From: an uncultured Planctomycetota bacterium
Lineage (GTDB): Bacteria > Planctomycetota > Phycisphaerae > SM23-33
Length of the DNA stretch: 64,000 bases
Assembly (NCBI GenBank): GCA_903892515.1
Contig: CAITIS010000057.1
Coordinates: 49,627-113,626, forward strand
Direction: 5' to 3'
Positions 18,395-59,855 of the stretch are shown piece by piece. Every line of letters begins with the position of its first letter. The first letter of the stretch is position 1. The translations under genes and the position numbers were made by a program. The notes beneath the pieces are model-generated. The model did not search any database. It was not told where the DNA came from and saw only the letters and a list, made by a program, of their open reading frames with translations.

Positions 18395-20058
18395 TTTTCG
18401 AAGAACTCGCGCGCATCCTCATGGAGTTGCTTTCGGGCTGGCGGGTCGGTGTAGATTTGATGGCCGGCATCGTACAGCCGCACCGTCAGATGCGCACGAA
18501 ACGTTTTGGGCAGGCCCAAGTGCTCAGCCGTGTATTGCTGCATGAAATAGCCCGTCACAAGATCGTATCGCCCAGCGGCCATGAGCACGCGCAGGTTCGG
18601 GTTGACCACCATCGCCTGCTGCAACGTGGGTGAAACGTTCAGGCTGCCGGACTGGCCGCTGTCCCAGTTCCACATGCGACTGATCTCGCCGGAGAGAAAC
18701 ACGTACGGCGCGTTCGTGCGATAGCCCAGTTCCTGCCGGATGTACTCCTGGATGGTGGCGCTGTACGGCCCGATCACCAGCGACAGCGACGGATCGTCCA
18801 GCACGCTGTTGGTGTCAGTATTGGGCCCAGCCACGCGGTCGTCGTACAGGCCTAGCGTCTTGTTGTCCTTCTTGAGCAGCTCGTGGGCGAAGTCCGAGTT
18901 GCTCACGCGCAGCTCATCGGCGGCGATCACCTCTTCCGTCAGGCCGGTGAGGCGGGCGAGCCGCGCGATCACCTGCTTGCGCTGCGTCTCGTCGAGTTTG
19001 TCGCCGGAGGCCAGGGCCCGCAGGTACTCGTTCAAGGCATATCGCTGCGATTCATCCAGGGCTTTGGCCAGGTCGGCCTGCAAGTCGGCGGGCAGCTTGT
19101 GGTGGTAGTGCGCCGCGGCCGTATATGTCGGCAGGTACAGGGCGAAAGGCAAATCGTTGCCCGGCGCAAACTGGATGAGTTGGAAGTTCAGCGGCGAACT
19201 CACCAGCACCAGGCCGTCCAGGTACATGCCAAACCGCCGCTGAAGGTAGCCCGACAGTGAGGCCGCACGAGTTGCCCCGTAGCTTTCGCCAGCCAGATAC
19301 TTGGGCGAGAGCCACCGCTCCCAGCGCGTGACGTACAGGCGGATGAATTCGCCCAGCGATTGCGTGTCGGCGTGCAGCCCGAAGAAATCCTTGGCCTTGC
19401 TGGCGTTGGCCGGTCGGCTGTAGCCGGTGCCGACCGGATCGACGAAGACCATGTCGGTGGCGTCCAGCCAGCAGTCGTCATTGTCGATGAGGGTCAGGGT
19501 CTTGGGCAGCGTCAGGCCGGCCTGGCCGAGTTCGGCCCGCTTGGGGCCCATCGCGCCCATGTGCAGATACATAGAGGATGCGCCCGGGCCGCCGTTGAAG
19601 GCGAAGGTGAGTGGCCGCTTGCCCGCCTCGACGCCGTCGAGCGTGTAGGCGATGAAGAAGATCTCGGCATCGGGGTTGCCCTCGGCGCCGGGAACCTGCA
19701 ACAGCCCAGCCGTGGCGGTGTAGTGAAGAATCTTGTCGCCCAGGCGAATCTCGTGGTGCGTGACGGCGAGCCCCTGCGTCTGTTCCGATCCTTCGCCGGG
19801 GCGCGTGGCGGCCGCACGAGCGCCCTGGGTTGCGGTCGCGGCCGTGGCACTGCCGCCCTCGGCTGTTGAATTCGTAGGACAGCCGCCCTCGGCTGTCGAA
19901 TTCGTAGGACAGCCGCCCTCGGCTGTCCGGGAGGGGGGCTGGCTGACCGGCCGTGAGAGTGGTTCGGGTCTTACTGGCTGCGTCGCGACTTGGCCCGAGC
20001 ACGCACTGGGAATCACAAGCATGGCCACAAGCAATGGCAGCAGCTTGAGTTGGGTCAT
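18388..20058 (-). CDS. Serine carboxypeptidase, S10 family, exported
   Basis: FAFNGGPGASS, FVDPVGTGYS, nucleophile motif AGESYG, and YDAGHQIY (catalytic His); N-terminal signal peptide. Confidence 0.92.
   Translation of the reverse strand: MTQLKLLPLLVAMLVIPSACSGQVATQPVRPEPLSRPVSQPPSRTAEGGCPTNSTAEGGCPTNSTAEGGSATAATATQGARAAATRPGEGSEQTQGLAVTHHEIRLGDKILHYTATAGLLQVPGAEGNPDAEIFFIAYTLDGVEAGKRPLTFAFNGGPGASSMYLHMGAMGPKRAELGQAGLTLPKTLTLIDNDDCWLDATDMVFVDPVGTGYSRPANASKAKDFFGLHADTQSLGEFIRLYVTRWERWLSPKYLAGESYGATRAASLSGYLQRRFGMYLDGLVLVSSPLNFQLIQFAPGNDLPFALYLPTYTAAAHYHHKLPADLQADLAKALDESQRYALNEYLRALASGDKLDETQRKQVIARLARLTGLTEEVIAADELRVSNSDFAHELLKKDNKTLGLYDDRVAGPNTDTNSVLDDPSLSLVIGPYSATIQEYIRQELGYRTNAPYVFLSGEISRMWNWDSGQSGSLNVSPTLQQAMVVNPNLRVLMAAGRYDLVTGYFMQQYTAEHLGLPKTFRAHLTVRLYDAGHQIYTDPPARKQLHEDAREFFEKR
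19844..19933. repeat. Three tandem 30-bp GTAG/GTGG REP-like units inside the S10 peptidase ORF
   Basis: GTAGG-ACAGCCG-CCCT-CGGCTGT twice plus a GTGGC variant; encodes (N/R)(S)TAEGGCPT repeats. Confidence 0.9.
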
Positions 20059-20209
20059 ATCGTTCTCCTTTGTCGTTCCATCCTAGGCTTGCTGGGGGCA
20101 GCAGAACTTGACCGCAGGCCCGTCGTACGGAGAGAATACTACTGATGAGTCCTGAACTTGGCCACCGCCCAATTGTGATGGTGGCCACGCCGCCTTCCTC
20201 GGAGCGCTC

Positions 20210-22174
20210 GTGAAGTCAAAGTCCAAGGGACGACAACCGGATTCGCCCAAGTCGCAGGCCGCTGAGCCTGCGCGTGGCCTCAGGCCGATCTGGGCGATGC
20301 TGCTGTGCCTGGCCTCAGTGCCGCTGGGCCTGCTTTCCTTTCCGCCCTTCGATCACTGGTACCTGGCGTATGTGGCCCTGGTGCCGCTGGGCCTGGGCAT
20401 CGTGCTGTGCCGCTCGCGGCGGTGGGCGATGCTGGGAGCGTACGTCGCGGGCGTAGTCTTCTGGGCCATCGGGGTGTATTGGTTGACGTGGGTCACGCTG
20501 CTGGGATACGTCGCGGCCGTGGCGTACCTGGGCACGTACTGGCTGGCGGCCGGGGCCGTGCTGCGGGCGGCAAGACCTTCTACAGCTTCTACGCGCCGCT
20601 GGCCGATGTGGCTGGTTGTGCCCATCATCTGGGTGGCCTTGGAGTATCTCCGCGAATTCGTCATCAGCGGCTTTCCCTGGTTGCTGCTGGCCCACAGCCA
20701 GCACACCTTGACGACGCTCATTCAAGTCTCCGACCTCACCGGCCAGTACGGCCTGTCCTTCTTTGTGGCCATGGTCAACGGGCTGGTCATCGACCTGGTG
20801 CTGTGGAGACTCAGTGCCAAGGCCCGGCCCTGCGCTGCCCTTGAGGAAGCCGGGACAAGCGGCATTTCTGGCGATGAGACCCGAAGGGCCGGGACGATTG
20901 TGGCCGGGGGTGTAAGCCCCCGGTGTGCGGCCGGTATTCCTGGAGCCCCGAAGAGGCGGCACTTGCTGGCACAGGCGCGAATATCCGGGCTGCCAGTTTT
21001 CGGCTTCATTGTCACATTCGCCTCAGCAATATTCTTGCTGGGCTACGGGTATTTCCGGCTGCATCAGGATGCCCAATCGCCCGGGCCGCGGGTCGGCGTC
21101 GTCCAGCAGAGCTACCCGATCTCGCTCTTTCATCAATACGCCGACTGCGACGACATTTATGCCGCCTTCCTGGCTTCCAGCGAAGAACTCGTCGGTAAAA
21201 AGTGCGACTTGGTCGTCTGGCCCGAAACGATGCTGCCGGCACCCAACATGGAGCCGGAATACTGGTTTGGGCTCAACCCCGACATGAAGGATCCGCGCGA
21301 CCCGAGCAAGCCCTGTTTCAGCCCGGCCGTGCAGGAGATGATCGCCTGCTACCAAGCGTATTTGCGGCGGATGGACGAACTGTTGGCCAAACTGGGCTGT
21401 CCCTTGCTTGTCGGTGGCACGATGCCGGCCCGCGGCTTTAAGTCCGAGGAGCGATTGTACGAAAACGCCGCCATGCTCTTCGATCGCGACTGCCCGGCCT
21501 CGACTTCTGCTGCCGCCTCTGACCCAACGGCCCCGTGCGAGCTCAGGCTCATCGACTGGTACGGCAAGATGCACCTGGTGCCTTTTGGCGAGTACGTGCC
21601 GTGGCGGCGGAGTTTCCCGTGGGCGTTTTCGCTGCTGCGGCAATTTGTGCCGCCGGCGATGGCCCAGCTCGAACCAGGCCGGCGGGCCACAGTGTTCCGC
21701 TTCGGCCCGCAGCGGCAGTGGAGCTTGGCCGCGCCGATCTGCTACGAGGGCGCCTTTGCCCGCGTCTGCCGCCACTTGGCCACCGATCGGCCGGGCAAGC
21801 TCAGCCTGCTCGTGAATATTTCCAACGACGGCTGGTTCGTGTACCAGGGCGCCGACGGCAGCGTCACGCCGTCATTTGAATTGGATCAGCACCTGGCCCA
21901 GTACCAATTCCGGGCCGTGGAGAACCGCGTGCCGGTGGTGCGGGCGGTAAATTGCGGCATCAGCGGCTATATCGATTCCAATGGCCGCGTGGTGGAGGTT
22001 TTGCAACGGGCGGGGCAAAGCCGGATGGTGTGCGGAACAATGGTGGCGCAGGTGCTTGTAGATGGACGGGTTTCTCCGTATAGTCTCTCTGGTGACATTT
22101 TTGCGCAGGCCGACAGCTTGGTCGGCGCAGGGCTCATCGTCTTGTTGTGGCGCAACCGGAAACGTGGCAGTTAG
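20210..22174 (+). CDS. lnt: Apolipoprotein N-acyltransferase
   Basis: Multi-TM N-terminus with GFPWLLLAHSQ; nitrilase-fold triad WPET, YGKMHLVPFGEYVP, PICYEG; ISNDGWF; RAVENR. Confidence 0.95.
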   Translation: MKSKSKGRQPDSPKSQAAEPARGLRPIWAMLLCLASVPLGLLSFPPFDHWYLAYVALVPLGLGIVLCRSRRWAMLGAYVAGVVFWAIGVYWLTWVTLLGYVAAVAYLGTYWLAAGAVLRAARPSTASTRRWPMWLVVPIIWVALEYLREFVISGFPWLLLAHSQHTLTTLIQVSDLTGQYGLSFFVAMVNGLVIDLVLWRLSAKARPCAALEEAGTSGISGDETRRAGTIVAGGVSPRCAAGIPGAPKRRHLLAQARISGLPVFGFIVTFASAIFLLGYGYFRLHQDAQSPGPRVGVVQQSYPISLFHQYADCDDIYAAFLASSEELVGKKCDLVVWPETMLPAPNMEPEYWFGLNPDMKDPRDPSKPCFSPAVQEMIACYQAYLRRMDELLAKLGCPLLVGGTMPARGFKSEERLYENAAMLFDRDCPASTSAAASDPTAPCELRLIDWYGKMHLVPFGEYVPWRRSFPWAFSLLRQFVPPAMAQLEPGRRATVFRFGPQRQWSLAAPICYEGAFARVCRHLATDRPGKLSLLVNISNDGWFVYQGADGSVTPSFELDQHLAQYQFRAVENRVPVVRAVNCGISGYIDSNGRVVEVLQRAGQSRMVCGTMVAQVLVDGRVSPYSLSGDIFAQADSLVGAGLIVLLWRNRKRGS

Positions 22175-59728: not shown

Positions 59729-59832
59729 GATCTGCTCCTGGTCGTCACAGCCTTCGTCACACACGGTCGCGCCGACGACAGGCGCCGCCATGCCACATTC
59801 CCCAACGCACGCGTCGATAGCCGCAGAACCTC

Positions 59833-59855
59833 ACAGCCGAGGGCGGCTGTGCTAC
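59833..59855 (-). repeat. Intergenic GTAG REP unit, same family as the intragenic units at 19844-19933 and 52248-52303
   Basis: Reverse complement reads GTAGC-ACAGCCG-CCCT-CGGCTGT. Confidence 0.9.

Follow-up and report, generated by a model that had tools for sequence, protein, structure and literature searches.

In-frame GTRG-tagged REP palindromes in a linker and a loop of two genes from an uncultured planctomycete

Introduction

How does one and the same hairpin come to be read through, in frame, by two unrelated genes, and is it of any use to them? The question is raised by a 64-kb stretch of DNA (hereafter the window) from an uncultured Phycisphaerae-like planctomycete (contig CAITIS010000057.1), for which a preliminary description had reported a hairpin family, here called family A, between genes at 59833-59855, three times in tandem in a gene for an S10 serine carboxypeptidase and twice in a gene for a HAD-family hydrolase, with the frames intact; we located all six copies. 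We argue below that family A is a genuine repetitive extragenic palindromic (REP) sequence of the GTAG type, belonging to a system of REP doublets forming hairpins (REPINs) and REP-associated tyrosine transposases (RAYTs), and that its two in-gene survivors are likely passengers of disordered sites, and most likely neutral ones.

GTAG-tagged REPs and REPINs are reportedly mobilised by RAYTs, as Nunvar in 2010 and Bertels & Rainey in 2011 are said to have described, and Rickettsia palindromic elements (RPE) were reportedly introduced by Ogata et al. in 2000. Elements of the RPE-1 type are ~100-150 nt long and restricted to Rickettsia, and we know of no transposase for them. GTAG- and CGTC-tagged REPs have been catalogued in >80 species from 8 phyla, Planctomycetes and the verrucomicrobium Opitutus terrae among them; GTGG heads occur in O. 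terrae, and the catalogue also has REPs that overlap the ends of open reading frames (ORFs) and RAYT genes that are REP-flanked (Di Nocera, De Gregorio & Rocco 2013, PMC3733652). The same survey lists intragenic REPs, which occur singly, as dimers or in clusters and encode 20-82 aa, most of them in O. terrae, with peptides such as VGPALAAG and HGRHARAT; it argues that they sit in flexible linkers or loops, warns of N-terminal mis-annotation, and places the short elements RPE-4 and RPE-6 among the CGTC REPs (PMC3733652). Since intragenic GTAG and CGTC REPs are thus on record in many species, the statement of the preliminary description that such elements are normally extragenic, and in frame mainly in Rickettsia, is out of date (PMC3733652). 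RAYTs have been discussed as inherited mainly vertically, horizontal transfer coming into play over long periods (Bertels et al. 2017, PMC5581495).

Results and Discussion

Family A Is a GTAG-Type REP

Allowing for up to one mismatch, the palindrome ACAGCCG-N4-CGGCTGT occurs six times in the window against 0.06 expected, and no shuffle reaches six. The copies start at 19849, 19879, 19909, 52248, 52281 and 59833, which makes three sites, one of them extragenic, and where they adjoin they do so as direct repeats only. Read head-first, all six have the form GT(A/G)G-(G/C)-ACAGCCG-N4-CGGCTGT, with C rather than T at position -1. The extragenic copy (Table 1) lies ~30 nt downstream of the stop codon of the gene at 59886..61811(-) and upstream of the gene at 58988..59791(-).

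In a GC-rich window (63%), one must ask whether such a shared hairpin is coincidental or local in origin, arising from tandem repeats at the protein level or from GC-rich palindromes that occur by chance. Chance hairpins are indeed plentiful here, with 60 perfect hairpins of stem ≥7 bp in the window vs 41.6 ± 4.7 in shuffles, and the hairpin in the lnt gene discussed below, with its heterogeneous loops, behaves like one of them. The copies of family A, however, match each other at the DNA level in three reading frames as well as in non-coding DNA, exceed expectation as just described, and recur under at least nine phylum labels, with conservation of features that the search left unspecified and in positions flanking RAYT genes. 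We therefore regard this reading, already scarcely credible as a general account, as effectively refuted for family A, while it may still apply to the lnt hairpin. Among perfect hairpins with a GTRG tag the excess is larger (16 vs 1.8 ± 1.5 in shuffles), and 10 of these 16 lie in non-coding sequence, which makes up 16.5% of the window. A known structured RNA was also considered as the identity of the hairpins and rejected, as Rfam at its gathering threshold matches a tRNA-Arg as the sole hit in the window.

To follow family A beyond the window, we scanned one genome per species with the pattern GTRGSACAGCCG-N4-CGGCTGT, and obtained at least 149 copies in at least 116 genome loci (L005-L120), in metagenome-assembled genomes (MAGs) labelled as at least nine phyla; the counts across genomes given below refer to the matches listed. 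The labels include Planctomycetota (among them the complete genome CP050848), Acidobacteriota, Chloroflexota, Hydrogenedentota, Nitrospirales, Sumerlaeota, Armatimonadales and Verrucomicrobiia, as well as "Deltaproteobacteria", Desulfobacterales and Thermodesulfobacteriota. The heads of the 149 copies are GTGGC (84), GTAGC (26), GTGGG (24) and GTAGG (15). Several features on which the pattern placed no constraint are nevertheless conserved: the loop is CCCY in 124 copies (83%; CCCT 80, CCCC 44), an eighth stem pair is complementary in 145 of 149 and covaries (C-G 107, G-C 38), and T precedes the GTRG head in 166 of 196 copies (85%). Where two copies are adjacent, 18 of the 24 pairs point heads-outward, typically with a spacer of 12-15 nt, six are direct and none is heads-inward.

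The preliminary description proposed a search for RAYT or Y1 genes flanked by the same hairpins, and such genes exist in four other genomes. In an Acidobacteriales genome (L044), a gene at 3509-4069(-) encodes a protein of 186 aa that scores 88.6 bits against the RAYT profile NCBIfam NF047646 (cut-off 80 bits), and is bracketed by REPs at 3558(+) and 4087(-). In a Planctomycetota genome (L009), the gene at 683-1195 encodes 170 aa, scores 78.8 bits, just under the cut-off, and is bracketed by two inverted REPs; both proteins also carry the Y1_Tnp HUH signature. Two "Deltaproteobacteria" MAGs add a RAYT homologue, 49-65% identical, beside one strict REP copy (L034), and a frameshifted RAYT copy (L096). 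We conclude that family A is indeed a REP of the GTAG type and part of a REPIN/RAYT system, as the preliminary description had surmised, because it is multi-copy, conserves unspecified features, forms outward doublets and flanks RAYT genes.

A further 48 copies occur in 38 predicted viral contigs of IMG/VR (L121-L158). None of these 38 contigs holds a RAYT, and contamination by host flanks is possible; carriage by phages as a route of horizontal transfer was accordingly set aside.

The HAD Insertion

One of the two in-gene cases is the HAD-family hydrolase, encoded in an operon with a sugar-nucleotide epimerase and an ATP-grasp protein. Its ~57-codon insertion is missing from all 15 aligned homologues (length ~230 aa), such that the finding by which the preliminary description would have been overturned, the same segment in distant homologues, was not made. 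The inserted DNA consists almost wholly of three tagged palindromes, i.e., two family-A units and a GTAG-tagged long hairpin. The last of these has no second copy in the window or in the fetched REP loci, and was rejected as a repeated family. As the identical protein is found on seven contigs from several samples, the insert is no assembly artefact. An AlphaFold2 model gives coil with a predicted local distance difference test score (pLDDT) <50 at residues 45-98, and >90 elsewhere, and the insertion is thus predicted to form a disordered loop.

Could the hairpins be untranslated, with true starts downstream or ORFs mis-called, and thus be ordinary extragenic or 5'-untranslated REPs? Di Nocera et al. 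caution against taking N-terminal "intragenic" REPs at face value, many being annotation artefacts (PMC3733652), we ourselves conclude a mis-call for the long lptE-like ORF described below and possibly for one locus elsewhere (L041), and a HAD variant in another assembly (P0362, sample ERZ1426834) is called from M119 with 173 aa. In the HAD protein, however, motif I (DLDDT, of the form DxDxT, aa 13-17) precedes the hairpins and the remaining fold follows them in the same frame, and the shortened variant keeps the window's spacing of 357 nt to the ATP-grasp stop, so that it contains no indel; its short call may reflect a point difference, or an artefact of the gene caller, within the part that carries the REPs. 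Together with the evidence from the S10 gene that follows, this makes an untranslated origin very improbable.

The S10 Array

Behind its N-terminal signal peptide, the S10 protein has a low-complexity linker of ~70 aa that holds the REP array. The array starts with a decayed unit, GTGGC-ACTGCCG-CCCT-CGGCTGT, followed by two units GTAGG-ACAGCCG-CCCT-CGGCTGT, with GAATTC as spacer, and its minus-strand reading is three times TAEGG(C/S)(P/A)T(NS). We count it as translated because the signal peptide lies upstream, the ATG at 20058 is preceded by a Shine-Dalgarno-like GGAG 6-9 nt upstream, and the ORF offers no alternative start with a signal peptide downstream of the array. All homologues likewise have a signal peptide and then a variable linker of 20-60 aa before a conserved VTHH..YTATAG, and it is in this hypervariable linker that the array lies.

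The preliminary description had family A in both orientations relative to the ORFs, which is wrong: on the coding strand both genes read the hairpin and then CYAC, and only the frames differ (TAEGGCPT vs SQPGAAVPR). The in-gene copies at 19849 and 52281 carry stem mismatches. In-gene family-A copies are thus already decaying, which fits neutral passengers better than selected structures.

In the terms that Di Nocera et al. applied to intragenic REPs, the HAD protein has a whole REP in an ORF of >120 aa, is a recognisable protein with no mis-called start, and has homologues without the segment; S10 is counted with it, its linker varying in all homologues, and the cluster at the bamD/lptE junction described below falls outside (PMC3733652).

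In-Gene Copies across Genomes

Genes in the other genomes were called with a crude caller based on GC content at third codon positions (GC3), which gave a coding density of 78%. Of the 149 copies, 109 lie outside called ORFs, in the ~22% of DNA that is non-coding (a ~9-fold enrichment per base), and 40 within them, of which ~20 copies at 17 sites are deep inside genes. The in-gene share of family A across genomes is 13-27%. With two of its three sites in genes, the window does not differ significantly from this rate in the upward direction (P ~0.1 at p = 0.2).

Pfam places REPs of this kind between domains, as between GH43 and GH43_C2 (L020) or Ferric_reduct and Rieske (L006), but also inside LplA-B_cat (L036), before Dala_Dala_lig_C (L045), and in N-terminal extensions of UDG (L079) and a squalene-hopene cyclase (L041); in L021 the REP comes just after a signal peptide, as in S10. 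The reading frames are stereotyped. Among the 20 deep copies listed, eight read VAQPPSAV (L021, L036, L047, L073, L085, L086, L088 and L114), nine QP(G/R)AAVP (L006, L020, L041, L045, L061, L070, L079 and L085) and three GTAALGC, and none of the 20 uses the frames WHSRPRL, HSRGRLCH or TAEGGCA. The HAD copy of the window is in the common QPGAAVP frame, and the S10 array in the otherwise unseen TAEGGCP frame. Both arrays found inside long ORFs (S10 in the window, and L041 with its ambiguous start) have a period of 30 nt, and those outside called genes repeat every 31, 31 and 34 nt.

Passengers or Selected Modules

The stereotyped frames also bear on whether the in-gene hairpins are selected modules, either as mRNA structures (for translational pausing during secretion or folding, for stabilisation of the mRNA, or as RNase sites) or as useful peptide cassettes such as a Cys-containing linker repeat of a secreted peptidase. 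A few points would suit such a role of the peptides or mRNA hairpins: the hairpins are stable (RNA folding of the S10 array gives z = -4.5), the S10 unit has been amplified threefold, and hairpins stand just past the signal peptide in both S10 and L021. The frame bias, however, is equally explained by purifying selection against frames rich in Arg, Cys, His or Trp; the in-gene copies decay, with mismatched stems and a changed loop; they sit in unrelated host genes, always at disordered or variable sites; homologues work without the segments; and no Rfam family is matched. We consider selection for the hairpins or peptides themselves unlikely, and find it likely that family A, a GTRG-tagged REPIN/RAYT element, survives in these two genes as a passenger in disordered sites.

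On this reading, the unit of 24 nt (GTRG, an 8-bp stem and a CCCY loop) would be copied by a trans-acting HUH/Y1 RAYT that recognises the hairpin and GTRG tag on single-stranded DNA, a step known from E. coli TnpA-REP and IS200/IS608 and transferred here by analogy. The transposase would be encoded elsewhere in the source genome, or have been lost. Most insertions would land or survive between genes, and a minority in genes, where persistence would require a length that keeps the frame, a stop-free frame of small flexible residues, and a site in a disordered linker or loop; purifying selection may thus act as a filter on frame, peptide and site. In S10, one REP would have entered the linker after the signal peptide, and slippage or unequal recombination would later have multiplied it to three units of 30 nt (10 codons), and in HAD the composite of three palindromes would form a 57-codon loop in the cap region.

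Several points weigh against this account. Neither a RAYT nor a family-A REPIN doublet lies within the 64-kb window; the preliminary description had already noted the lack of a mobiliser, and a tblastn search of it with two RAYTs reaches no better than E = 0.42, with Pfam scans of all sizeable ORFs likewise finding no RAYT. The S10 "insertion" is not definable residue by residue, and its frame TAEGGCP, which contains Cys, is unused by all 20 deep in-gene copies elsewhere. In the HAD loop the alignment is empty, and low pLDDT is to be expected there anyway. The best relatives are distant (HAD 64%, S10 53% and lnt 51% identity), and the 90% clusters of the protein collection contain identical or near-identical sequences only; since there are no close relatives, the insertions are neither datable nor demonstrable as presence/absence polymorphisms. 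That the REP segments would be translated is deduced from the logic of the ORFs only. Finally, ~7 of the in-gene cases elsewhere are Pfam-checked and the rest come from the crude caller, such that N-terminal ones (including L041, whose start codon is ambiguous) may be 5'-untranslated.

Table 1. Hairpins, host genes and repeat arrays of the window, in window coordinates.
Feature	Position	Strand	Basis or remark
S10 serine carboxypeptidase gene, 556 aa	18388..20058	-	Pfam Peptidase_S10 5.4e-16
Three tandem family-A units, 30-nt period	19844..19927	+	TRF period 30, 2.5 units, 97% match
HAD-family hydrolase gene, 291 aa	52102..52977	+	Pfam Hydrolase / HAD_2
HAD insertion, ~57 codons, aa ~39-96	52216..52389	+	Alignment with homologues
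Family-A REP GTGGC-ACAGCCG-CCCC-CGGCTGT	52248..52270	-	Read SQPGAAVPR
Decayed family-A REP	52281..52303	-	One stem mismatch, loop TAGC; read SHPATAVPR
GTAG-tagged long imperfect hairpin GTCCGCAGGTTCCGCGAG / CTCGCGGGTTCTGCGGAC	52328..52380	+	9-nt unit triplicated
Intergenic family-A REP GTAGC-ACAGCCG-CCCT-CGGCTGT	59833..59855	-	
Family-B REP GTAGG-GCGTGCAA-CTTG-TTGCACGC	52974..52998 (+); 26634-26658; 28054-28078		3 copies
Family-C REP pair GGTGG-CATGGTCACGC	30518..30615; others 41479-41510, 41607-41638		Intergenic; 4 half-sites in total
Family-D double hairpin GGTGC-CACACCTGC + GCAGCCGTG-GCACC	18262..18330; second copy 45437-45531		First copy between convergent genes
Family-F cluster, three hairpins CAYGGSCG-AGA/TCT-CGSCCRTG + GNCAC	35262..35348	+	bamD-like/lptE-like junction
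Two degenerate F-like hairpins GCGGGCGAGACTCCCGC-GACAC; GGGCGAAACGCCCGC-GAC	35110..35222	+	BamD-like C-terminal tail
lnt hairpin GTGG-CCGGGGG-TGTAAG-CCCCCGG	20900..20923	+	Read VAGGVSPR
6-7-nt tandem arrays	26541-26567, 28718-28751, 29135-29169, 31671-31774, 41411-41455, 41676-41723, 46990-47029, 47067-47113, 48810-48870		

Other Hairpins and Repeats of the Window

The preliminary description held that several hairpin families of this lineage act as a source of new peptides. Judged by the logic of the ORFs, family A alone can be counted as translated with confidence. The window's families B, C, D, E, F and G are all extragenic, and are ordinary extragenic REPs, placed 3' of genes or between cistrons. 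Two copies of family B lie just 3' of genes, and in the third the HAD gene ends on the TAG contained in the GTAG head (52975-52977), such that the REP sets the end of the ORF.

Hairpins are indeed present at the two further places named in the preliminary description, the lnt gene and the bamD-like/lptE-like junction. The family-F cluster at the junction is inverted and takes the shape of a single large REPIN-like hairpin on folding (z = -6.06). It is flanked by the bamD-like stop codon (35253) and the probable lptE-like start, ATG 35367, which yields MNWACVRRGARIRKSVILALLGLSVMSIFCSGC, a signal peptide with lipobox, and Pfam LptE matches the long ORF only from residue 114 onwards. As the cluster is intercistronic, the peptide HGRDARDT, given as a product in the preliminary description, is probably not made. 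The bamD-like gene itself ends in a disordered tail beyond its YfiO domain (which ends at aa 363 of 510), where AGETPAT and QGETPAT, read from degenerate hairpins, lie inside a diverged tandem duplication of ~90 nt. GC3 drops to 0.57-0.70 in the last 180 nt of the gene, which suggests that the tail is young coding sequence.

The lnt hairpin occupies a lineage-specific loop insertion of ~35-40 aa, and resembles family E at no more than 11 of 13 positions of a half-site. Within the window it has no second copy at up to four mismatches, and a metagenome scan with GTGGCCGGGGG-N6-CCCCCGG, which doubles as a negative control for family A, returned 135 matches with heterogeneous loops, the commonest in 4 of 135. 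We therefore rejected it as a REP family, and no family could be demonstrated for it.

The gene set around the hairpins is ordinary, and its nearest relatives carry the labels Phycisphaerae or Planctomycetota. It includes a chemotaxis operon, surface proteins of the PEP-CTERM and Calx-beta kinds, lnt, MreB, RF-1 and pyrF, a BamD-like followed by an LptE-like protein, FtsH, folP, a DAC cyclase, sugar-nucleotide epimerases, an ATP-grasp protein followed by HAD, a GH123-like protein and MttB.

Other repeats accompany the hairpins. In the convergent intergenic region after the HAD gene, a repeat of ~123 nt occurs twice with 94% identity (53008-53130 and 53179-53300), each copy holding a hairpin with a 16-bp stem, CCATAGGTAGAGCCGC-N8-GCGGCTCTACCTATGG, and a degenerate third copy is found at 45345-45382; it may be a MITE-like (miniature inverted-repeat transposable) or larger REP-type element. 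The family-E hairpins at 16608-16734 adjoin a 21-nt tandem repeat, AAACGGGGCCCAGAGCCAAGG, present in ~4 copies at 16725-16821 upstream of a ceramidase-like gene (16894..18186). Nearly every longer intergenic region of the window carries a tandem array of 4-9 units of 6-7 nt, the unit varying by locus (CATAGGT, CGATTTT, CCGATTC, CGGATAC, GATACCA, CTAATAT, CGGGAAT, TCCCAA, GGGAATC, TTCCCGA and CCCTATG); these arrays resemble the heptamer repeats reported in cyanobacteria and Xanthomonas.

The tRNA-Arg(ACG) at 14284-14357(-) is abutted by the remnant of an integrative element of slightly lower GC (13690-14408), with an excisionase-like HTH_17 ORF at 13690-14181 and a fragment at 13920-~14100 that matches only the C-terminal third of Phage_integrase. 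This tyrosine-integrase fragment (~13.9-14.1 kb) was considered as a mobiliser and rejected, being a phage-type remnant next to the tRNA, unrelated to Y1/HUH RAYTs.

Comparison with Known Systems

In its GT(A/G)G tag, GC-rich 8-bp stem and short loop, family A is like the known GTAG REPs, as it is in its inverted doublets and the RAYT genes bracketed by the same REPs; across the other genomes, it also appears to have their mostly extragenic position 3' of ORFs. It also shares with intragenic GTAG REPs the minority position in ORFs, the ~8-80 aa encoded and the placement in linkers and loops. GTGG heads dominate as they do in O. terrae GTAG-20, and the peptides on record for that species include ones like HGRHARAT. 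Unlike in the set of Di Nocera et al., the host is an uncultured Phycisphaerae-like planctomycete, the unit is near-unchanged under at least nine phylum labels, C stands at -1 in the window, and no RAYT lies within 64 kb. The consensus (T)GTRG-S-ACAGCCG-CCCY-CGGCTGT-S' is absent from the text and supplements of that paper, its figure of family consensuses aside (PMC3733652).

With RPE, family A has in common that palindromic repeats lie in frame in unrelated functional genes (RPE add surface-exposed segments). Unlike RPE-1, it is 24 nt long, GTRG-tagged, RAYT-associated and found in Planctomycetota and other phyla, such that only the in-frame outcome is shared. The S10 array, with 2.5-3 near-identical 10-codon units of a slippage-prone type, also recalls the variable-number tandem repeats in linkers of bacterial surface proteins, but its unit is a mobile REP with a 6-nt spacer rather than a protein-derived motif.

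Conclusions

The window reveals no new mechanism, as in-gene REPs and their probable neutrality have been on record since 2013. What looks new is this consensus, its near-identity across phyla and the frame bias. As a more tentative proposal, to which we would give somewhat less than even weight, one near-invariant REP/RAYT lineage (T-GTRG-S-ACAGCCG-CCCY-CGGCTGT-S') may be common to Planctomycetota, Acidobacteriota, Desulfobacterota-type "Deltaproteobacteria", Chloroflexota, Hydrogenedentota, Nitrospirota, Sumerlaeota, Armatimonadota and Verrucomicrobiota, and to some IMG/VR contigs, through cross-phylum horizontal spread or extreme conservation, giving rise within genes to frame-filtered, stereotyped peptide cassettes. 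If this is true, a system usually described as vertically inherited would show cross-phylum transfer or extreme conservation, and the VAQPPSAV and QPGAAVP cassettes would be a recurrent, recognisable source of linkers and loops in environmental bacteria.

In annotation, low-complexity inserts that are lineage-specific, and recurrent odd peptides such as VAQPPSAV, QPGAAVP and TAEGGCPT, in proteins of planctomycete, acidobacterial and other MAGs are explained by these 24-nt units. REPs also flag starts and ORF ends that are easily mis-called, such as the start of the long lptE-like ORF and the end of the HAD gene, whose stop codon comes from a GTAG head. For the biology of these bacteria, the window offers a well-documented case of in-frame REP tolerance in linkers and loops outside Proteobacteria and Rickettsia, together with data on which frames survive.

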